Notes: generated from the sequence alone by a model not told the origin. A stretch of 64,000 nucleotides of DNA from a virus (IMGVR_UViG_3300020576_006967:124934-188933); one strand, 5' to 3'; shown: positions 830 to 61,496, numbered from the stretch's first letter. Numbers and translations are program-made.

Positions 830-889
830 AAACCATAACAGACTTTGTTTTTTTTAAAAAAACTTAATATTTATATTAAAAAGTCTGTT

Positions 890-1804
890 ATGGAAGAAAA
901 AACTAAGTATTTTATTGGCAAAGCAAAAAAAACACATGGAAACAAATATGATTACTCTTTAGTTGAATATAAAAGTAGTCGAGAAAAAGTTAAAATAATT
1001 TGCAAAAATCACGGAGAATTTGAGCAACAAGCTAATTCTCATTTGCAAGGAAAAAAATGTATGCAATGTTCAATAGAAGAAAGATCTTTGAAAAGAAAAA
1101 ACACAAAAAAAGAATTTATAAACAAAGCGATTGAAATACATGGGAAAATTTTCGATTATTCAAAGGTTGACTATGTAAACAATAAAACTAAAATTAAAAT
1201 AATTTGTAAAAATCACGGAGAGTTTGAACAAAGACCAGATTGCCACTTATTTTTAAAACACGGATGTCCAAAGTGCGGCGGCACTTCAAAAGTTAGCTTA
1301 GAAGAGTTTAAGAAAAGAGCAAATGATAGACACGATGGTTTTTTTAATTATTCAGCAGTAACATTTAATAATATTACTGATAAAGTTGAAATAAATTGTC
1401 CAAAACATGGCCCATTTATACAAGGTGTTAAAGCTCATTTAGATGGAAATGCTTGCCCTAATTGTAAGACTTCAAAATTAGAAAACAAAATTTTAAAAGA
1501 AATAAAAGGAATAACAAATGAAATTAGAATTAAACAATTTTACAAGAGCGCATGGTTAGAAAGACAACATATTGATATTTTTTTGTTAGATTTTAATATA
1601 GCAATAGAGTGTCACGGAATACAACACTATGAGGTAATTGAAAAATTTGGAGGTGAACCCGCATTCAAAAAAAGAATTGAGTTGGATTCTAAAAAAAGAA
1701 AACTGTGTGCAGAAAACAATATTGAACTTTATGAAATTCCGTATTTTTATAACAAAAGTGAATTGAATGAAGTTTTACAAAAAATAAAAAACAAAATAGC
1801 ATAA
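890..1804 (+). CDS. Free-standing homing endonuclease (tandem HG-x-YDYS / C-x2-HG-x-F-x-Q / CPxC zinc-ribbon repeats plus C-terminal PD-(D/E)XK-like domain)
   Basis: Three YDYS..IICKNHGEFEQ..CPKC-type repeats, then HIDIFL..IAIECHGIQHY. Paralog at 57786-58913. Confidence 0.8.
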   Translation: MEEKTKYFIGKAKKTHGNKYDYSLVEYKSSREKVKIICKNHGEFEQQANSHLQGKKCMQCSIEERSLKRKNTKKEFINKAIEIHGKIFDYSKVDYVNNKTKIKIICKNHGEFEQRPDCHLFLKHGCPKCGGTSKVSLEEFKKRANDRHDGFFNYSAVTFNNITDKVEINCPKHGPFIQGVKAHLDGNACPNCKTSKLENKILKEIKGITNEIRIKQFYKSAWLERQHIDIFLLDFNIAIECHGIQHYEVIEKFGGEPAFKKRIELDSKKRKLCAENNIELYEIPYFYNKSELNEVLQKIKNKIA

Positions 1805-20967: not shown

Positions 20968-21585
20968 ATGATAGTAAGCAAAATTAAATTTCCAAAATTT
21001 ACAGGCATTAAATGTATTATGATGCCTTTTATCCAGGGTGATAGCTCTTCACTTCCTGAAATCTATAAACCATACAAAAAAATTATAGATGAGAACTTTT
21101 TAGAGAAAGGTCAAATTGGTTTTTTAACCATTGATGAAGATTTTGTTGAGGGCGGTAAATCACAACGTGGCTATAACGATGCTGGTATAACCCGCAACGT
21201 TCACATTGAGGTTGGTAGAACAAAAATGGGAAATCGCTGGGGCAGTGGCGGCGGAAGCTCATGGGGTGGAAAAAGAAGCACTCGTTTAAAAGACAGCACA
21301 ATGGTTTTGATCGCCAATAGCATTTCAGATACTTGTCGTGTATGGAATACAAAAGATAAATCTTATACAAAAAACGGAGATCTAAGTAAGTACATTGACA
21401 AATATCCTGAAAACACAGGTATTACTATGAAAAAAGGAGAGCTGGCAAAAATAAGCATATTTACTCCACACGAATGTGTGCCACAAAAAAAACCAGGACA
21501 AAGACAATTTTTTAGAATTGTTGGTAAAGGTGTTACTGGTCGTGAAAAATACTTCACAGTTAATCCATTGGTGTCAATCAAATAA
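20968..21585 (+). CDS. Hypothetical protein, possible double-stranded beta-helix (2OG-Fe oxygenase-like) fold
   Basis: VHIE, TPHEC and RQFFRIV motifs. Confidence 0.35.
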   Translation: MIVSKIKFPKFTGIKCIMMPFIQGDSSSLPEIYKPYKKIIDENFLEKGQIGFLTIDEDFVEGGKSQRGYNDAGITRNVHIEVGRTKMGNRWGSGGGSSWGGKRSTRLKDSTMVLIANSISDTCRVWNTKDKSYTKNGDLSKYIDKYPENTGITMKKGELAKISIFTPHECVPQKKPGQRQFFRIVGKGVTGREKYFTVNPLVSIK

Positions 21586-21781
21586 GTTATGAAGCTAAAA
21601 GATTATATCAAACAACTTAAAAAAATAAAACCAGAGCTACAAGATGTGGATGTTAAAGTTGTGGCGGAAAACGGTTTGCTGTTTGACCCTAAAGCGAAAT
21701 TTGTTTTAAAAGATCCAATGGATCCTTTAAATATTAGCAAAAAAAATGTAGAAACGATTGTTATAACTTACTAAAAAAAAT

Positions 21782-22030
21782 ATGATTCCAAGAAATTGCC
21801 AGGAAGTAATTGCTTCCATGATTGAAAAAGTTCCTGTTGACAAAGAAGATTTTATCAGAGATCTAAATTGGAATTTAAAAGATGCCATATATAAAGCCCC
21901 AGAAGAAACATTGCAATGGCATAGAACTCAGCAAACTTTGATTGCACATATTCCAAGACCAAAACAAGAGTGGGAGTTCGAAGTTGTCAGCATTTTTACA
22001 ACGGTTGGGTGTATATGTAGTGGTGGATAA
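21782..22030 (+). pseudogene. Hypothetical gene interrupted at its 3' end by the cassette (native tail at 22710-22746)
   Basis: Joining 22002 to 22710 restores the frame ...SIFTT-RPVDELKAMYP-stop. Confidence 0.65.
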
Positions 22031-22709
22031 AGACCAGAAATGTTTGATTAACCACAAAACATCATAGAAAGCACAAATCTTGAAATCACATACAAAACCA
22101 CCATTACATATACACCTTGTTATGTGTAGGTGTGGTTAATTAAGGTAGAGTGTTTAATCGGAGAACTGAACAAAAATTTTAAAAGAAAAAGAAGGGTGGG
22201 AAGTTTTAATTCTTAATATTTATATATAAAGAAAACAAATATATGAAAGATTTGAGAAAATTTATTAAAACCACTATACGAGAGTTTTTGAATGAGAATA
22301 TTCAAAATTACGATATTGTATATAGAGGACAACCTGATGATGTAGATGATATTTCACCAAAAAAATCAATTTGGGTTACTTATGATTATGATTTTGCGAA
22401 TGAATATGGTAATGTTAAAAAATATAAATTACCAAAAAATCTAAATATTTTAGATACTGATTATTATAGTGAATGGGAAAGTTTGGTTGATGAATTTGAT
22501 GAAGATGGTGATTATGATGAGTATAAATATGAACCAACTGATGAATTTATATCCTTTTTAAGTTCAAAAGGGTATGATGGATTTATGAATGGTGATAATA
22601 TTTTAATATTTAATAAATTTCTATTGAAATAAAAGTGGGTGGGATTTTTCTTTTAAAATTTTCAACCGAAATGTTGATTAGAACAATTAACGGAACACTT
22701 ACACATAAC
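22003..22709 (-). mobile_element. Solo integron-like gene cassette with attC-like site
   Basis: 19-bp inverted repeat at 22008-22026/22098-22116, GTTATGTGT at 22119 and ACACATAAC at 22701-22709. AAC is present at both junctions. Confidence 0.7.
22243..22632 (+). CDS. Cassette cargo: putative ADP-ribosyltransferase-fold protein
   Basis: VYRGQ..SIWVT..FANEYG..GYDG pattern, with N-terminal MKDLRKFIKTTIREFLNE leader. Confidence 0.5.
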   Translation: MKDLRKFIKTTIREFLNENIQNYDIVYRGQPDDVDDISPKKSIWVTYDYDFANEYGNVKKYKLPKNLNILDTDYYSEWESLVDEFDEDGDYDEYKYEPTDEFISFLSSKGYDGFMNGDNILIFNKFLLK

Positions 22710-22781
22710 TAGACCTGTAGACGAACTTAAAGCTATGTACCCTTAAAAAAATCAAATAACTTCCTATTTATTTAGAAAGTT

Positions 22782-23135
22782 ATGGATATTTTTAAAGATA
22801 TAAGTGGTGAAATTCAGTTATTTTTTACTGGGTTAAATTGGACATATATTTTCATTTTTATAATGGTTCTCTATGGAATCAAGTATAAGCCAGAATTCCA
22901 CTGGTACAATTCTCTTTTGCACAAATTAGGTGCTTCAAAGTTTAAAGTGTGGATCGCTGGTATCGTTATAGGTATCTTTTTTTGCATTTTTAGACACTCA
23001 GACGGTGTTTTACCTCTTAATAGCTTATATGTGTCCAGTTTGTTAAGAAGTTGGATTGTAGCCATCGTATTCAATTCTTTGGCAAGCTTAAAAATTCAGC
23101 AAATAGACAAATCTGAAGATCCAAAAAAAGATTAG
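22782..23135 (+). CDS. Small multi-pass membrane protein (holin-like)
   Basis: Three hydrophobic segments and a charged C-terminus. Confidence 0.4.
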   Translation: MDIFKDISGEIQLFFTGLNWTYIFIFIMVLYGIKYKPEFHWYNSLLHKLGASKFKVWIAGIVIGIFFCIFRHSDGVLPLNSLYVSSLLRSWIVAIVFNSLASLKIQQIDKSEDPKKD

Positions 23136-23546
23136 GTTTTGGAATTTTTGAATTTAATGTTTATATTTTATAATGTTGTTACCAACCGTTAAAATAATAA
23201 ACTCAGAGGTCCGTCAAATTACAGAGTGGCTTCTTTTAAGTGAATTCTATTGTCTTGTTGAAAAATCCAGACTTCTATTACTTTCCTCCACAAATTTAGA
23301 AGAGCTTGAAGAAGCTAAAATGTCAGTTGATGACATGGCAAATTTTTTATTAAAGATTTTGCTTAAAAATTTAATTGAACCAGATGATTTGTCATCTTAT
23401 GAAATACCAATAATTTACAGAAAAATACAGCCAGAGAACGGCTATAATGCTGGTTACTATTTAAACATGTGTTCTCTATATTTACTTCATGCAAACTTGT
23501 TTAATTATATTGTGGATGGTAGATATAAAGAATTTAGAAAGAAAAA

Positions 23547-36987: not shown

Positions 36988-39776
36988 ATAGAGTTTATCA
37001 AATTACCTCTATATTTAGTACATCGCCAACAATTTTTGCCAATTCTTTAATTTCCATAGAACAAATATAATAAAAAAACCTAGACTTTTAACAATTGTGA
37101 ATTGTTTTTATTGTTATATTTGCAATAACCAAAAAACACATAATGAGCGATCAAGAAATTAGTCAGTGCGATATTTGCGGAACAGAAGCTGCTGTCGAAA
37201 GGAAATATTATCACTACCCAATCACTTGTGATTGTTGCAACGGCGAAAAAGATAATCACTTTGAAATCGTTTATTTTTGTAGTAAGTGCACACCAAAACC
37301 ACCTAGGTTGGTTACTTGTGAAATTTCACCGTTAGATTAAAATATCATGTCAGAAGATAAAAAAAATGAAAAAATAATTTTTGTTTCACCTGGTTTTGAT
37401 ACACCTGAAATAGTTCATATTCCAATATTTGATATAATTGCAACCCGTAAATTAAAAAACGGCGATTTCTTCCTTTGGGTGAGCGGAATGACTGGAAGAA
37501 GAGAAATACATCAATTTCACTCTGATGCTGGCTATGGTGTTAAAACCTGGACTCAATTTAATGAAAAAGATGGCAGCTCCATGATTGTAAATTGGTCAGG
37601 TGTTTGCGGAAAAATAATTGCTAAACAAAACATGTAAAAATATGAAAGAAATAAATTTTAGAATTATCGAATTACCAGAACACCAAATATTGCTAACAAA
37701 AGATTTTGACGACGAAGAAGAATTAGAAGATGACGAAGAATCAAAACCTTTATTGGTTGTTACATTTTTTGTAGAAGACCTTAAAGTAAATCAAAAATTT
37801 GGTTTTTCTGATGATAACAAACGTGACAAGGCTTTTGAAAATTTTACAGATGCTCAGGCCCAATCGCTTATTGATAGCGCTATTCAAATGATGACTGACA
37901 CAGGTGAATAATTTATAACTATGAGAAGATTTGAATTAAATAAAAACACGCAAGTGGAACCGTGTCCTCAATGCGGTCAAAACGAAATATTTGAAGGTCA
38001 CTCTCAACAAGTTGCAGAAGACTGTTGTGAAGTGTGGGTTATTTGCAAGTGTGGGTATGACCCAACAGCCCACAACACTGATTATAGAATGGAAGATGTT
38101 TGGGGTGGCACAGATAACAACAACATGATGGCGGCGCTTTCTTGTTCTTGGAACGAACCTATTAATGAAATAAAACTTTTAAAAGAAAAATGGGTTAACA
38201 AAAGAGTGGCATGTGTTAAAGAAGATCCAATGGATGATCATTGTGGAATACCTGAAGAAAACAAGTGGCAGATTGGAGAAGAGTTTGTTGTTGATAGTTT
38301 GGAGATTGAGCCTTATGGCATTTTCTTGCACGATGGCAAAGGTCACAATTTAAATATAAGAAGAGCGATAATAATTTAATTATGGAAAAAGTTACAGCAA
38401 AAAGCTACACACTATACGATGATGGTGGAAGCTGGTTAGGCCAGATAGTATTAACAAGCGATGGCATGTTTGCCTCTGTCACAGATTATGGCAATCTTTC
38501 TTATTCATGGAGGTCTTATACTCAAAAGGATTTTCGTGAATTCTTGGTCGGATTAAATGTCGACTATTTTGGAGGCAAAATGTATACAGGAATGGCTTAT
38601 ACTCTTTACGGAAAAAAATGCGAAGACTCTTGTCATAGATACGCCGCCAAGATATTACCAGCGCTCCAGAAAGCCTTAAAAGAAGAATTGGAGCTTGAGT
38701 CTCAACTTGCTGAAGGAACATTTCCACTAGACTAAACACATGGATTTTCAATACATAAAAGACCGTTACAATGTTCCTGCTGAAATGCATAGAGAAGTCA
38801 TTGTAGATGGTAAAAAAGGCGTTATAACCAAAGATATGGGAAACTATATCGGCGTGAATTTCTACGAAAATTTAACACCAGATCCATTGCCTTGTCACCC
38901 AACTTGGGAAGTTAAATATCTAGACACGTTTAACCATAAACCGCCAGTTAAAAAACTAACAAGGTCCCAAAGGAGATATCTTGATTTTTTGCACGATGAC
39001 TCAGGCCTTTCTTTTAAAGAGTGGTTGGGAATAAAGTAAACAAATGGATACTTGCAACATATTATTCTTGGATGAGATGTCTGTAGAAGACACCACAGGT
39101 TGCTTAAAGCCATATGCTCACAACGATTTTCATTTGTTTAAAAATCAGCATGGAGAACTGATTGCTTGGGATTATGACTGGGAATGTAAATGTGGTTGTT
39201 GGGATTCTGATGAATGGAGTGACGCTTGTAGGTTGTATTGGAAAATAGAAAAAACTTGAAACCTTTTTAGTCTTTAGTCGTATAAGTAATTATGAATTTA
39301 AATAAGGCAAACGATATTAAGAATTGGAGAGCGCAAGAAAAAGAAAGATTGCGTAGCGAAAAAAAACACCAATCAAATTTGAAGCGTGAGTTAAAAATTT
39401 TAAAATTCATGCTTAAGAGTGATGTTTTGTATTATCATCACAACAGACAAGATTCTATGAAAAAAGCAGTCTTGTTTGCAATTGATACACTTAAACAAAA
39501 AAACCAATACGAAGAATACAATTTATATATCTGGAATTATTTAGGACAAGGTAATGACTATGCACCATTTTCCTGGTTAGGTTGTCGATTCTTTAGTTCA
39601 GATTTTAAATCAATTTACGAAGTCCCTCTTGATGGCACGTATAAGTTTCACATATACGACTCAGGAGAAAGGGGTTTGGGTTCATTTAACATATTAACCA
39701 CAACAAAGGTGGAAGATGTTCCAAAGATACCAAAAGTAAAGCCAGGAGCATTTCCGCCTGTTTACGCTAGCACTTA

Positions 39777-56774: not shown

Positions 56775-57811
56775 GAGTCGATGAGGTTTTTAGCTTCTAG
56801 TTTTTTGTCTATTATATTTCTAAACAACACAACTAATTCATTATAAGATAGTTGTGTTAAATTTGATATAAGTCTTGGTATTTGATCGTTATTAATGTTG
56901 GCAGTTTCCAATAAATCTACCCAAAGAGTAGGCGATAAAAGATAATGATATGGTTCGTTTATATGATTATCTGCTTTGGAGTAATAGTATTCCAACTCTA
57001 TTTCTGAGTATTCTTTTGGGATGCCTGAAGCAAACAGATAATTCATAAGTCCTTTTTGAAGTTCGTGTAACATTACTGGGAAGTTTATAGATTCTGTTTC
57101 TATGTTAGCTCCAAAACCTTGAGTTCTGTTAAATTTAACTTTACTAAATCCTTGTGTTATCATTTTAGAATCAATAATATCTTCCATTAAATCATCTGGG
57201 TTCATAAACCAGAGTGCTATTCCAATTGAGGCTGTGTATTGATTATAAAGCTCTTTTAAATCTGGGTCCAATAAGTTTATTTTTTCTGCTATCATATGGT
57301 GTAGTCCTTTCCATATGTTCATTGAACTTCCATGTATTAAACCTATAAAAACTTCTCTTTTTTTTATTTGGTCCAACATTTTATTTTTTTGTTCAAGAGT
57401 AAGCTCAAGAAATGGTTTTGGATTATTATCTTGCTCAGAATTAAAATCAAGCCCAGGTCTTATAATTGCCTTAAGGTTAATATAGTCTGGTATGTTATAA
57501 ATTTCTTTTATTAAACTAATTCCAATTTCTTCTAATTGTTTTCTGATTGGCTTTTCTTTTTTTACAATTAATTGTTGAATACCCGCTATTCTAGTCATAC
57601 ATTGTTCAAGTTTAACATTTGTGTTCCTTGATTTAAATAATTCTAGACATTTATTAAACTCTTTGTAGGCTAAATATTCTGGTTTATAATTATAAACCAG
57701 ATTCATATCAAATGGAAACATTCCAGAATCCATACGTTTAATTATTTGCTTATGTGGAGCATGAGATAGTGAAGAAATAAGAACGCTAAATTTTTTTCCT
57801 GTTGATTTCAT
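56762..57811 (-). CDS. Hypothetical protein (349 aa)
   Basis: Long ORF with no recognised motif. Confidence 0.6.
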   Translation of the reverse strand: MKSTGKKFSVLISSLSHAPHKQIIKRMDSGMFPFDMNLVYNYKPEYLAYKEFNKCLELFKSRNTNVKLEQCMTRIAGIQQLIVKKEKPIRKQLEEIGISLIKEIYNIPDYINLKAIIRPGLDFNSEQDNNPKPFLELTLEQKNKMLDQIKKREVFIGLIHGSSMNIWKGLHHMIAEKINLLDPDLKELYNQYTASIGIALWFMNPDDLMEDIIDSKMITQGFSKVKFNRTQGFGANIETESINFPVMLHELQKGLMNYLFASGIPKEYSEIELEYYYSKADNHINEPYHYLLSPTLWVDLLETANINNDQIPRLISNLTQLSYNELVVLFRNIIDKKLEAKNLIDSWNL

Positions 57812-58913
57812 TTAAAAATTGATTTAATTTTTTTTGTAAATTATCTGTATACTTTATTCTATATAAGATTATATTTTTTTCTTGACAATATTTATTTTTT
57901 ATTGCATCATTTTTTTGTATTTGTTCTAGTTTGTTTTTAGCGTTTTGATCTTCTTTTAAGCGCCAAGTTTCAAAGTGTTGTTCTCCATCGAATTCAATAC
58001 ATAAATTGTATTCTGGTAAATAAAAATCAAAAGGGAGAGCCCTCTTGTTTATACATTCATCAAATTTTTGTTGTTTATTAAACAAAATTTTATTCTGTTT
58101 TAAAAAAGAAGATATAAATTTTTCACCCTTAGACTCATTACAGGTTGGACATCCACTACCCATGGTATGATGTGATGGGGACTGTGAAAATTCACCATGC
58201 TCACTGCATATTATTACAACTTTATTCTTGTTTGTTTTATAATAAACTTTTGAATAATCATATTTATCTCCGTGTATTAACTTACTTTTATTTATAAATT
58301 CTTCTTGAGTTAATTTTGAAGTGCCGCCACACTTTGGGCAACCTCCTCCTAACAAATGAACATTTGGTTTTTGTTTAAATTCTCCATGAATTTTACAAAT
58401 AATAGAAACTGGAATTGAATTTTTCGCATAATCTACTTTGTCATATAAGTATTTGTCGTTGTGTGTTTTTACAGCTGAGTTTATAAATTTTTCTTTATTG
58501 GAAGTTATTTTTTTGCCACCTTCTTTGTGACCACACTTTGGACAGCCACTGCTTTTTATGTGAGTTTTTGGAGTTTGGAAAAAAGAGCCGTGTTCAGGAC
58601 AAATAATTTTACAGGGAGACTCGTACATTTTATAAAATTCTTGATCATATTTAAATTTATTTCCATGTTTTTTATTGGCTCTTTTAAAAAAAACTTCAAA
58701 GCTAATTGATTTATTTTTACCAGCTTTAATTCTACCACACACTGGACATCCTTGTCCACTTATATGAGCTGCTGGGGTTTGTGTAAATTGTCCGTGTTCT
58801 TTACAAATAATATTAACTTTAGTTAAACGATCTACATAGTTTAAATTAGAATAATTATATGAATTACCATGAGATTTTTTAAATTCAATTATTATTTCTT
58901 TCTCAGTTCTCAT
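57786..58913 (-). CDS. Free-standing homing endonuclease (four zinc-ribbon repeats plus PD-(D/E)XK-like domain)
   Basis: HG..Y.YS..IICxxHGxFxQ..H..G.GCPxC repeated four times, then PFDFYL..IEFDGEQHF. Confidence 0.8.
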   Translation of the reverse strand: MRTEKEIIIEFKKSHGNSYNYSNLNYVDRLTKVNIICKEHGQFTQTPAAHISGQGCPVCGRIKAGKNKSISFEVFFKRANKKHGNKFKYDQEFYKMYESPCKIICPEHGSFFQTPKTHIKSSGCPKCGHKEGGKKITSNKEKFINSAVKTHNDKYLYDKVDYAKNSIPVSIICKIHGEFKQKPNVHLLGGGCPKCGGTSKLTQEEFINKSKLIHGDKYDYSKVYYKTNKNKVVIICSEHGEFSQSPSHHTMGSGCPTCNESKGEKFISSFLKQNKILFNKQQKFDECINKRALPFDFYLPEYNLCIEFDGEQHFETWRLKEDQNAKNKLEQIQKNDAIKNKYCQEKNIILYRIKYTDNLQKKLNQFLNEINRKKI

Positions 58914-59015
58914 ATAAATAAATATAATAAAAAAATAGAAAAAAAACAAATTCCTAATCATTATTTTTTTAAACAAAAAAACCCCGCTTGTTAGACGGGG
59001 AGAGTTTGTTTTTTA

Positions 59016-59918
59016 TTATTCAAAAATGGCGACCAATTTTTTCACTGAGATGTTTTCGTCAAGGCCTTCCATAAGTTCGAGGAATGCTTTGGCACGTACA
59101 TTTGTTGCGCCTGATTTTTCGATTGTTTCTTTTACTGCAGCCAATTTATCTTTTAAAGATTTCGGCTTGATAGTTTTCACGTGAGATGCTGTAGCTTTCT
59201 TTGGAGCTTTACCAGTTTTTTCAGCTTGCAGCTGAGCTTCGAACACTGCTTCTTCTACAGCTTTTATTTGTTCTTCAGGAGTTTTAATCTCACGGGTAAT
59301 GGCAAGTACTGCGTTGGATGAAATTTCGTTATTGTGGATGAGGGTTTTAATTTCCTCAGGTAATTTATTTAGGGAGAGGATGTTATAAACATTGGCAACC
59401 GATTTGATGCCGAAGCTTTGTTGTAATTGTTTGATGGCATCTCCACGTTTAAGGCCTTTTGAATTTTCCAATTCTGAGATCACACGCTCAAACAAGTTTG
59501 CTTTTTCCAGGTCGGTTAAAGGTTGTTTGCCTTGGCCAGTAACGCCCATGATCATGAGACGCTCAAGCATTGTGTGACCAGAGGTGCGGAAAGGAACTTG
59601 AAGAATTTTTGAAATATCTTCGAAACCAGCTTTACCAGCGGCGTGGTTTATGTGTGCTAATTTAACAGCACGTAGACGGCGATGACCTTCGGTGAGAATG
59701 AATGTTCCATTCTTGCGGAAACCAAGCAATGCTTCGTAGATTCCGTTTTGTGCAATGTTAAGGGCTAGGCCATTGATATCACCGTAATTTGATTCTTCAC
59801 GTTGATTAAAGCCTTCTTCTACTTCAACAAGACGGTAATCAACATTCATTACATCGGTCTTTGTGGTTTTAAGGAACTCGGTTTCTTGGGTATTTGTTTT
59901 TGTGGCGATTTCTGACAT
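59016..59918 (-). CDS. ParB/RepB/Spo0J-like protein
   Basis: FNQRE..LALNIAQNG..LTEGHRRLRA..LTDLEKA. Confidence 0.8.
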   Translation of the reverse strand: MSEIATKTNTQETEFLKTTKTDVMNVDYRLVEVEEGFNQREESNYGDINGLALNIAQNGIYEALLGFRKNGTFILTEGHRRLRAVKLAHINHAAGKAGFEDISKILQVPFRTSGHTMLERLMIMGVTGQGKQPLTDLEKANLFERVISELENSKGLKRGDAIKQLQQSFGIKSVANVYNILSLNKLPEEIKTLIHNNEISSNAVLAITREIKTPEEQIKAVEEAVFEAQLQAEKTGKAPKKATASHVKTIKPKSLKDKLAAVKETIEKSGATNVRAKAFLELMEGLDENISVKKLVAIFE

Positions 59919-60401: not shown

Positions 60402-61496
60402 TTATTCGTCGTCATCATCTCCAGCAAGTTCTTCTTTATAAACCAGCTGAGTTAATTTACATTCGGCGATTGATACCACAGTCCTTTCTTTGATGTATTT
60501 AGACTGAAAGATTGCGTTTGTACCTTTGTGGGCGTAAAGATATTCAGCTTCAACAACTTTGTCAAGAGCTGGTATTTCTTTATTGGCTGGGATTGTAATT
60601 TTGCCAACACTGGTACGATTGCCATTCTCATCAATAAGCTCAAGGCCAACACTACGTTTTCCTTTAGTATGATTACCAACAATAAAGCTGGCGGTCTTAT
60701 ACCATTTAAATTTGAGCTGGTCTCCGCCGCTGTTTGGTCTACCTGCTTTATATTCGCCGTCTTTATCTTTTCCAACAAAGCCTTCGGCATTGCGAGCTTT
60801 AAGCTCATTATACATTGCCAGTTTTTCTTCTTTGGTAAATGCTGGTTTGGACAGGACAATGTTTTTATTGAATGGCAGTGTGTGGCCTGAAGCTAGAGCT
60901 AAAACTCTTTCTTTAAATCCATCACCTTTCATGTTCATTCCATGCCAAGACAATAAGTCAAACACAAATAATTTATCTCCAATGATTTCACAATCAATTT
61001 CGAATTCGTGTTGAGGTAGAGCATTAATAAGAAAATCAGGTAAAGGAACGGCTGTGCCCAATTTATTTCCGCCAGTGATTCCATTGGCGTTACGAATAAC
61101 TGTACGGCGTTGACCGTTATGTTTTTCTTGCATAACATAGCGATTATCGTTTATGATAATCATTGGGTCTTGAACTTCGTTTAGAAGTTGTGGGAGAAGA
61201 ACAATTTCTTTTTTCTCTTGAGCTGGTGTAAGAGAAAATCCAGCTTCTGCATCTGTTTCACCGCCAGTATATTGTTTTTTAAGACGTTCCTTTGTCATGG
61301 AATCAAAAATCTTTGTTGCTTCTGCTAAGGTAACAGGAGTTTGTGTTTTGGTTTCTGCTTTAAGGTTTCCACCAATAGCTCCGTATTGGAATTCTACAAT
61401 GTGGCCAGCTTCAGTTTCTATGAGCTGGAAATGGTATTCTTTATTTGACCTTGCATCTTGGAATTTCCAAGAAGATTTACGTAGGATGTTTCTCAT
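60402..61496 (-). CDS. WGR-domain ATP-dependent DNA ligase
   Basis: N-terminal WGR-like SNKEY..YGAIG..KKQY; ligase motifs EKHNGQR, EIDCE, FDLL, EGFVGK and KFK; OB-like C-terminus. Confidence 0.8.
   Translation of the reverse strand: MRNILRKSSWKFQDARSNKEYHFQLIETEAGHIVEFQYGAIGGNLKAETKTQTPVTLAEATKIFDSMTKERLKKQYTGGETDAEAGFSLTPAQEKKEIVLLPQLLNEVQDPMIIINDNRYVMQEKHNGQRRTVIRNANGITGGNKLGTAVPLPDFLINALPQHEFEIDCEIIGDKLFVFDLLSWHGMNMKGDGFKERVLALASGHTLPFNKNIVLSKPAFTKEEKLAMYNELKARNAEGFVGKDKDGEYKAGRPNSGGDQLKFKWYKTASFIVGNHTKGKRSVGLELIDENGNRTSVGKITIPANKEIPALDKVVEAEYLYAHKGTNAIFQSKYIKERTVVSIAECKLTQLVYKEELAGDDDDE

Follow-up and report, generated by a model that had tools for sequence, protein, structure and literature searches.

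A solo integron-like cassette in a phage gene belongs to a phage-borne family whose arrays adjoin a predicted Xer-like recombinase

Background

Gene capture through sites folded from a single DNA strand is classically exemplified by integrons, a capacity thought to be bacterial and to depend on the IntI-specific domain of the integrase. In these elements the ORF of a cassette lies upstream of the attC site on the top strand, and the cassettes are mostly promoterless. The attC site, an imperfect palindrome of about 57-141 bp, carries AAC at the end of its R'' box and GTT at the start of its R' box, and the IntI-specific insert binds the extrahelical bases of the folded site. These bases and an unpaired central spacer of the folded bottom strand determine the choice of strand, and the arrays end at an attI site beside the integrase gene. 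Integron cassettes can also be inserted at secondary GTT/AAC sites, known as attG. In the CTX phage it is the whole genome that integrates, at dif and by means of the host XerCD, through a hairpin-folded single-stranded attP. The exchange of PeSLs is thought to take place by homologous recombination between repeats; these are mobile regulatory cassettes of T4-type phages which Arbiol, Comeau and Krisch are said to have described in 2010.

Virulent phages, including the Polaribacter phage P12002L, carry CALINs, clusters of at least two attC sites without an integrase, and some of their sites can be used by IntI1 (Qi et al. 2023, Front Microbiol, PMC9892861). In that work the phage CALINs are treated as stray integron parts usable by the bacterial IntI1 (Qi et al. 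2023, PMC9892861). Searches of the literature on integrons in phages returned no description of a platform composed of a recombinase and its array, but only the CALINs (Qi et al. 2023, PMC9892861).

Here we analyse a single cassette of integron-like build that interrupts a coding gene of a phage, together with the family to which it belongs and the recombinase genes found beside the arrays of that family.

Results

The window, that is the whole stretch of DNA analysed (64,000 nt, to which all coordinates of the locus refer, on the + strand unless stated), belongs to an IMG/VR record of 188,933 bp that is about 74% complete. Comparison with related phages confirms that ORF 21782 is split by a real insertion, a mobile cassette of 707 bp at 22003-22709 that is missing from syntenic relatives and has the anatomy of the family described below. 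The 5' part of the interrupted gene (21782-22002, delimited by alignment of homologues) consists of 73 codons and 2 bases and ends in the AAC target core at 22000-22002, which is repeated at 22707-22709; the crossover is ambiguous within these three nucleotides, and on the minus strand both junctions can be read as G|TT, as initially annotated. As it stands, the ORF runs into the cassette and stops at 22030 with a foreign tail, VGCICSGG, the last 13 codons of the gene being replaced by 8 foreign ones. The displaced 3' end lies at 22710-22746 and is composed of a T followed by RPVDELKAMYP and a stop (22711-22746). Excision of 22003-22709 joins TTT ACA AC to T AGA CCT and restores the tail SIFTT-RPVDELKAMYP-stop, which had been claimed at the outset and agrees with the tails of the homologues: in eight database and two IMG/VR homologues SIFTT is followed by [KR]S[VI][ED][ED]L[KR], two of them ending in TTRSVDELKAMK (P0067) and in KSVDELKAMQP (P0069). 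Among the aligned homologues, the VGCICSGG ending belongs to the protein of the window only.

Four syntenic contigs (L082 and L083-L085) have the gene order of the window in common (205, 61, 87, about 117 and about 128 aa), with 74-80% nucleotide identity over the aligned flanks. Their alignment to the window extends to 22002 and resumes at 22708 or 22745, and in L082 the two flank matches abut, leaving an empty site; in the relatives this site reads ACAAC|CAGA, and the corresponding target in the window, within ORF 21782, is TTTACAAC|TAGACC (in its context, TTTACAACTAGACC). The initial annotation had proposed an insertion at a secondary AAC/GTT site, had suggested that related phages be searched for the empty allele, and had held that its reading would fall if the homologues normally ended in VGCICSGG and no empty site existed; the empty site of L082 and the uninterrupted tails of the homologues bear the proposal out.

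The insert precisely interrupts a coding gene and has its own ORF, as would also be expected of a self-splicing intron or of an assembly chimera. The chance of either is practically negligible. Assemblies of at least 3 samples (the places shown being JGI 3300033069, SRR10761721 and SRR32380203) yielded the interrupted allele, on 8 contigs in total, and it therefore is no assembly artefact. As for an intron, the boundaries do not fit, with no U at the end of the 5' exon and no GUGYG at the start of the insert, and the same units occur elsewhere in intergenic arrays; moreover, a scan of 21500-23200 with Rfam 15, at E values up to 10, returned noise only, with no match to group I or group II introns or to any known RNA.

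The cassette begins with a GGTTG spacer (22003-22007); when the + strand is folded, the first G of this spacer is paired to a T and the GTT is left as a bulge on the 5' side. The spacer is followed by the first arm of a hairpin, an L-box-like stem (GGTGTATATGTAGTGGTGG, 22008-22026), by a variable loop of 71 nt (22027-22097) and by the second arm (CCACCATTACATATACACC, 22098-22116). The 19-nt arms are complementary at 18 of 19 positions when recomputed, in agreement with the inverted repeat between AAC/GTT cores reported earlier; the one exception is a G.T wobble, able to pair on the + strand only. Within the window, the stem arm is found at two places only, with up to 3 mismatches allowed and a chance expectation of 0.01. 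After a TT comes an R'-like box, GTTATGTGT (22119-22127), which is the exact reverse complement of the R''-like box at the right end of the cassette, ACACATAAC (22701-22709). In the circularised cassette, the predicted junction joins ACACATAAC to GGTTGGGTG (GGTTGGG...), and the complete site, of 126 nt in total, is composed of ACACATAAC, GGTTG, the 19-bp stem with its 71-nt loop, TT and GTTATGTGT. This is the layout of an attC site, with boxes that do not strictly match RYYYAAC/GTTRRRY.

The cargo of the cassette is an ORF of 129 aa (22243-22632), made of an N-terminal leader, MKDLRKFIKTTIREFLNE, and a compact domain. It is bracketed by a perfect 18-nt inverted repeat, AAAATTTTAAAAGAAAAA (left arm 22173-22190, right arm 22645-22662), with a direct repeat, GGGTGGGA, just inside each arm (arm and direct repeat together at 22173-22201 and 22637-22662). 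Without the gene, the bracketing arms would make a perfect AT-only hairpin, and the same arms are found in a unit of locus L013 around another ORF body.

The search with the cargo protein led to L013, a locus with three contiguous units of the same plan, one of which has the hairpin of the window and both of its ends. A 16-mer that covers the foot of the stem and the GTT box, ACCTTGTTATGTGTAG, was used as an exact-match probe for the family and matched 62 viral loci of IMG/VR; 67 matches were scored, 66 in these loci and the window's own copy. The full anatomy of hairpin and cores is present in 45 of the 67, and all 45 have AAC before the boundary. The layout of the family is AAC|GGTTG, stem, loop, stem, TT, GTTATGTGT, ORF, ACACATAAC|, and when units are followed from end to end they line up in tandem, with as many as 12 in a row (L048). 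Of 62 distinct units, 53 carry at their far end the exact reverse complement of their own 10-nt GTT box, directly before the next hairpin, whereas the match of this box to its counterpart on the other side of the hairpin, part of the adjacent unit, is limited to a core of 3-6 nt in 55 of 62. Such a pattern is the signature of units that circularise, with the crossover inside the core.

The cassette of the window thus belongs to a large and widespread family carried by phages, which in other phages is organised in arrays. Its cargo, at 86% identity, is a cassette within an 11-unit array (L158), and in two loci (L009 and L010) a homologue of the interrupted gene is itself the cargo of a cassette, with end boxes GTTATAGGGC and GCCCTATAAC. 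In 596 Gb of prokaryote genomes the 16-mer gave 70 matches, 15 of them with the hairpin; all 15 are on MAG contigs (most of 1.7-45 kb, one of 74 kb) whose inconsistent taxonomy points to no particular host, and the subfamily was found in no isolate genome of this collection. Among cultured phages, a blastn search with the locus returned a single unrelated match of 180 bp, to a 635-kb uncultured phage. The genome of P12002L (L165) contains two units of the window's build at 37262-38932 of its minus strand, whose genes encode a DNA methyltransferase and a Mom-like protein; the genome has no recombinase. These two units may be the methyltransferase-bearing CALIN of Qi et al. 2023 (PMC9892861).

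The hairpin of the family is conserved, supported by covariation and strand-asymmetric. A consensus of 26 pairs was obtained from 14 sites with unrelated stems, with compensatory double changes at 18 pairs; TAAC and GTTA are invariant, as are a G.T pair that closes the core helix and a second one within the long stem, and the 5' arm has a bulge of 3-4 nt, while single extrahelical bases are not obvious. By a strand-symmetric criterion, the stems of 76 sites contain 187 G.T and 21 A.C pairs. When the reconstructed circle junction of the window is folded as DNA, the + strand reaches -24.9 kcal/mol (z -5.9) and the minus strand -20.4. The loops of the sites of about 80 nt have a motif in common, TTCAAATTAAGCACAAATGTT (alignment A3, columns about 40-65), on stems that differ, and this motif could be a promoter or a protein-binding element.

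The strand that carries the wobbles is the mRNA-sense strand (59 of 62 ORFs), and the G.T bias could for this reason reflect RNA structure rather than a folded DNA substrate. The hairpins might accordingly be intergenic RNA elements involved in processing or termination, the 707-bp block having been moved by illegitimate or micro-homology recombination. The wobbles (G.U in RNA) conserved on that strand and the position of the hairpins between co-oriented ORFs are consistent with such elements, and cassette frames that are 85-96% identical around unrelated bodies demonstrate that homologous exchange takes place as well. We consider this explanation quite unlikely, since the boundary falls at the same AAC in 45 of 45 members, the end boxes of a unit are exact 10-nt complements, target and donor share only AAC (plus TAGA), which is too little for homologous recombination, and the arrays stop precisely before a recombinase gene. 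A homologous, PeSL-like route of insertion was also considered and was rejected on account of the same overlap, AAC(TAGA), between donor and target.

A protein of the PF00589 family is encoded in 15 of the 30 other cassette-bearing records (E values from 1e-33 to 1e-40), including four of the five that are at least 82% complete; for 13 of the 15 the nearest cassette is no more than about 10 kb away, the length of these records being 28-362 kb. The final junction of nine distinct arrays reads AAC|TA(G/T)(A/T)TTATATA and is located 36-52 nt upstream of the start of the recombinase or of its truncated remnant. The gene is on the same strand and, beside these array ends, has an ORF of 266-268 aa where it is not truncated; overall, the tyrosine recombinases measure 266-271 aa. 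Such an attI-like array end next to a recombinase gene was found at the level of the family only, and in two loci (L014 and L017) it reads AAC|TAGATTATAT, having AAC|TAGA in common with the target in the window. Remnants of the recombinase are also seen beside array ends (L074, 2912-3098; L030; L024; L064), as ORFs of 46, 55 or 227 aa or as the first codons only. The platforms seem to lose the enzyme often and to keep the cassettes.

The recombinase has a SAM_4 N-terminal domain and the catalytic residues R...HxxR...H...Y. It is closest to the archaeal XerA, with 185-195 bits to NF040815 and a full-length alignment to 4A8E (E 6e-40); against the integrase model TIGR02249 it reaches 155-171 bits, below the cut-off of 265. 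Its alignment with VchIntIA (2A3V) is made of two blocks, separated by 37 residues where IntI has 85, and the enzyme therefore is without the IntI-specific insert. Judged from its sequence, the array-linked enzyme is a short Xer-like tyrosine recombinase and no classical integron integrase. Among cultured phages, the Polaribacter phages Freya_1 to Freya_10 and the Cellulophaga Ingeline phages have recombinases that are 38-41% identical to those of the family. The near-identical Freya genomes differ immediately upstream of the integrase, where additional small genes occupy between 0 and about 4.1 kb; in Freya_10 (L086, 1-4150) the last unit ends in GGTTGCTAAC|ACCCC, exactly where the Freya_1 record (L087) starts.

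The nature of this enzyme bears on another explanation, by which the insert, with a true attC, would be a cassette of a classical integron that the IntI of a bacterial host brought to a secondary G|TT site in the phage genome during infection. The AAC/GTT cores, the imperfect palindrome, the 126-nt site and the G|TT junctions all fit an attC. We nevertheless regard an origin by bacterial IntI as unlikely: the family adjoins a phage-encoded Xer-like recombinase that has no IntI insert; the longest ORF is on the + strand of the hairpin, and thus inverted with respect to integron cassettes, in 59 of 62 units, that of the window included; in the 596 Gb of prokaryote genomes the hairpin is found only on MAG contigs of inconsistent taxonomy and in no isolate; and the unpaired bulge is found on the crossover arm, the reverse of the arrangement in attC bottom strands. 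In support of IntI, on the other side, IntI1 recombined one of the two P12002L sites that were tested (Qi et al. 2023, PMC9892861), in a phage that has at least two units of the window's type. Of the initial description as an integron-like cassette of attC type, the integron-style working is supported, and its handling as an integron cassette by IntI is not, the array-linked enzyme being Xer-like and without the IntI-specific domain. The antisense orientation of the cargo relative to canonical cassettes, already pointed out for the window, turns out to be a property of the family (59 of 62 cassettes).

An IS200/IS605-like or other HUH single-strand element, inserting 3' of TAAC by means of a subterminal hairpin, would likewise enter beside a fixed short sequence and have a subterminal, strand-asymmetric hairpin, and the box at the hairpin foot, complementary to the distal end, loosely resembles the guide sequences of IS608. 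The Y1 HUH transposase (PF01797) was detected in 3 of the 30 other cassette-bearing records, at 2-18 kb from the cassettes and never abutting the array, it was missing from all three records with a completeness of 90% or more, and it is absent from the record of the window; furthermore, the units have one hairpin each, not one at each end, and recombination at a common core would account for tandem units that share their boundaries. A HUH element is therefore very improbable.

The initial annotation had described a solo cassette with no integrase in view, and had recommended a search of the whole genome for similar elements and for a recombinase. Profile searches of the 189-kb record for tyrosine recombinases, serine recombinases and Y1 HUH transposases found none, tblastn with the recombinase of the family found no remnant (best E value 1.1), the attI-like motif was not found, and two detectors agreed on a single site of the family, at 22000-22128. 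With no recombinase and no second site in the record, the insertion is therefore off-platform and at a secondary site. Other hairpin matches in the record are barely above shuffled controls (11 against 2-5) and have no features of the family. A candidate relic site after the interrupted gene (22755-22790, ATAAC...GTTAT) was rejected, since only its inner 7-bp hairpin, and not the AAC/GTT flanks, is conserved in the relatives. Elsewhere in the window, 845-1804 (+) and 57786-58976 (-) are paralogous HNH/homing-endonuclease-like ORFs (phrog_559, E values 3e-60 and 8e-93); the latter adjoins a ParB-like ORF (59016-59918) and a weakly DNA-ligase-like ORF (60402-61496).

The cargo protein has 63 homologue clusters, none of them named, and its sequence matched neither Pfam nor PHROG. 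Y27-R28-G29 and several other positions are invariant in the homologues, and several Glu residues are conserved. The ART fold is characterised by a split beta-sheet and by a triad, R/H...S/Y...E, that binds NAD. In a VIA structure search with the AF2 model (mean pLDDT 84.7), most of the top 50 matches were ART-fold proteins, all with Z below 8 (diphtheria toxin 7.3, MbcT 6.6, ParT 6.3, PARPs about 5), and a Foldseek search of the PDB gave no match at E<=0.001. The model thus suggests that an ADP-ribosyltransferase-like fold is likely, and an ART-like enzyme or an NAD-binding protein would be a reasonable, if unproven, reading of it. A homologue with 75% identity (L159-L161) is located in an ordinary, hairpin-free context beside an IF3-like gene; the gene family therefore exists both as cassette cargo and as a fixed phage gene.

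The cargo is enclosed in a frame that is common to other cassettes. In a comparison that included loci L031, L048, L029, L035, L071 and L074, the segment from the GTT box through codon 20 (22119-22308) has 85-92% DNA identity to seven other cassettes, and the last 76 nt (22634-22709) have 89-96% identity to six of those seven and 59% to L029. The ORF bodies between these conserved parts are unrelated (16-24% amino acid identity), so that a standard frame seems to receive one unrelated gene in exchange for another, and about 120 nt of conserved upstream sequence travel with the ORF. The leader MKDL[KR].FIKTTIRE[FY]LNE (22243-22296 in the window; cassette ORFs in L014-L075) is found on at least 8 unrelated bodies, a second one, MSKEMREQI..VKN[WF].QF[LV]NE, on about 7 to 9, and homologues of the window's cargo also bear other leaders. 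The L-x-E ending of the leader resembles T4-type prohead-protease sites and capsid-targeting sequences; a T4 gp21-type prohead protease (PF03420) was searched for in the 189-kb record, and none was found.

Discussion

Phages capture genes one cassette at a time, and the cassette of the window is a record of such a capture. We think it probable that 22003-22709 is one mobile cassette of a phage-borne, integron-like gene-capture system, inserted at a secondary site by an enzyme that was supplied in trans or is encoded in the unassembled part of the genome. In the platform phages, cassettes would be carried head to tail upstream of a tyrosine recombinase of about 270 aa, of Xer-like type. Recombination at the conserved AAC core would excise a unit as a circle, in which ACACATAAC and GTTATGTGT could pair and complete the long hairpin site. 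The circle would then be re-inserted at another AAC, normally that of AAC|TA(G/T)(A/T)TTATATA before the recombinase gene or that of another cassette boundary. The cassette of the window would instead have entered a secondary site, TTTACAAC|TAGACC inside ORF 21782, truncating this gene and delivering a self-contained gene for a small protein of putative ART fold. No recombinase is present in the 189-kb record, and the enzyme would for this reason have acted in trans, from a co-infecting phage or in an ancestor, or lie in the unassembled 26%, approximately, of the genome.

Several steps of this scheme are deduced from the arrangement of the family. From its place beside the arrays, we infer that the Xer-like recombinase of the family is the catalyst of cassette movement and that it performed the secondary-site insertion in the window, in trans or from the missing part of the genome. 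The folded + strand is presumably the substrate of recombination, and by analogy with integrons the exchange would involve a single strand and be resolved by replication.

A wider reading, which we put forward tentatively and hold to be somewhat less probable than its opposite, joins these elements into an integron analogue proper to large phages of Bacteroidota type, with a minimal Xer-like recombinase, delivery in trans, a swappable chassis and injected effectors. The recombinase would work without the IntI-specific domain, and any AAC of a co-infecting phage, coding genes included, could be a target. The chassis would be composed of the cassette's own upstream region, the shared leader peptide and the 3' inverted repeat, among which unrelated effector bodies would be exchanged. 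The leader ending in LNE might mark proteins for packaging in the capsid and for injection, and through the whole system injected effectors directed against the host or against defences could be plugged in, the cargo of putative ART fold being one example.

The cassette and the empty site in close relatives are natural evidence of an integron-style unit entering a coding gene of a phage, and the relatives show a phage-borne platform with a simpler, apparently Xer-like enzyme and an inverted orientation of the genes. The solo insertion indicates that the system can reach secondary AAC sites beyond its platform, can truncate genes and can probably act on genomes that do not encode the enzyme. 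If the role of the enzyme is confirmed, the range of mechanisms of hairpin-site recombination would be wider, the mosaic stock of accessory genes in large phages would be explained in part, and a compact pair of recombinase and site would be available as a tool.

Comparison with known systems

The system resembles integrons, the sedentary chromosomal ones above all, in its imperfect-palindrome site with AAC...GTT cores, in the crossover within the core and in end boxes that are complementary only after circularisation. The arrays of both end at a distinct site directly beside a tyrosine recombinase gene, and on the G|TT strand the phage recombinase is directed away from the array, just like intI, being followed by the attI-like site and then by the cassettes, each ending in its hairpin; the fold is strand-asymmetric in both. 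It differs from them in the recombinase, which at 266-271 aa is about 48 residues shorter than VchIntIA exactly at the IntI-specific domain, in the inverted ORFs of the cassettes (59 of 62), which apparently carry their own upstream regions, and in the site, whose bulge is on the crossover arm and which has conserved G.T wobbles in place of the classical extrahelical bases; moreover, these cassettes are hosted by phage genomes. The insertion in the window is comparable to attG insertions, because in both a single cassette is found off-platform at a short GTT/AAC target and leaves a hybrid site. Those insertions, however, are made by a bacterial IntI in bacterial genomes, whereas in the window a phage gene was hit, and the likely enzyme is not IntI.

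The CALINs of phages (Qi et al. 2023, PMC9892861) are also similar in their attC-type sites, in their small cassettes, often of DNA methyltransferases, and in being carried by lytic phages without IntI; a phage platform of Xer-like type, inverted ORFs or an intragenic cassette with its empty site are not described for them. The record of the window has one site, and a CALIN needs at least 2; it is therefore no CALIN. As with PeSLs, small accessory genes of phages are bracketed by conserved stem-loop sequences and shuffled between phages, with frames around unrelated bodies, but the cassettes described here have fixed boundaries at a 3-nt core, need no homology and have a dedicated recombinase at their arrays. 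With the CTX phage and XerCD, finally, the system has in common a tyrosine recombinase of Xer type and a hairpin-folded site on which it would act; here, unlike in CTX, the enzyme is encoded by the phage and would move units of a single gene within and between phage genomes.
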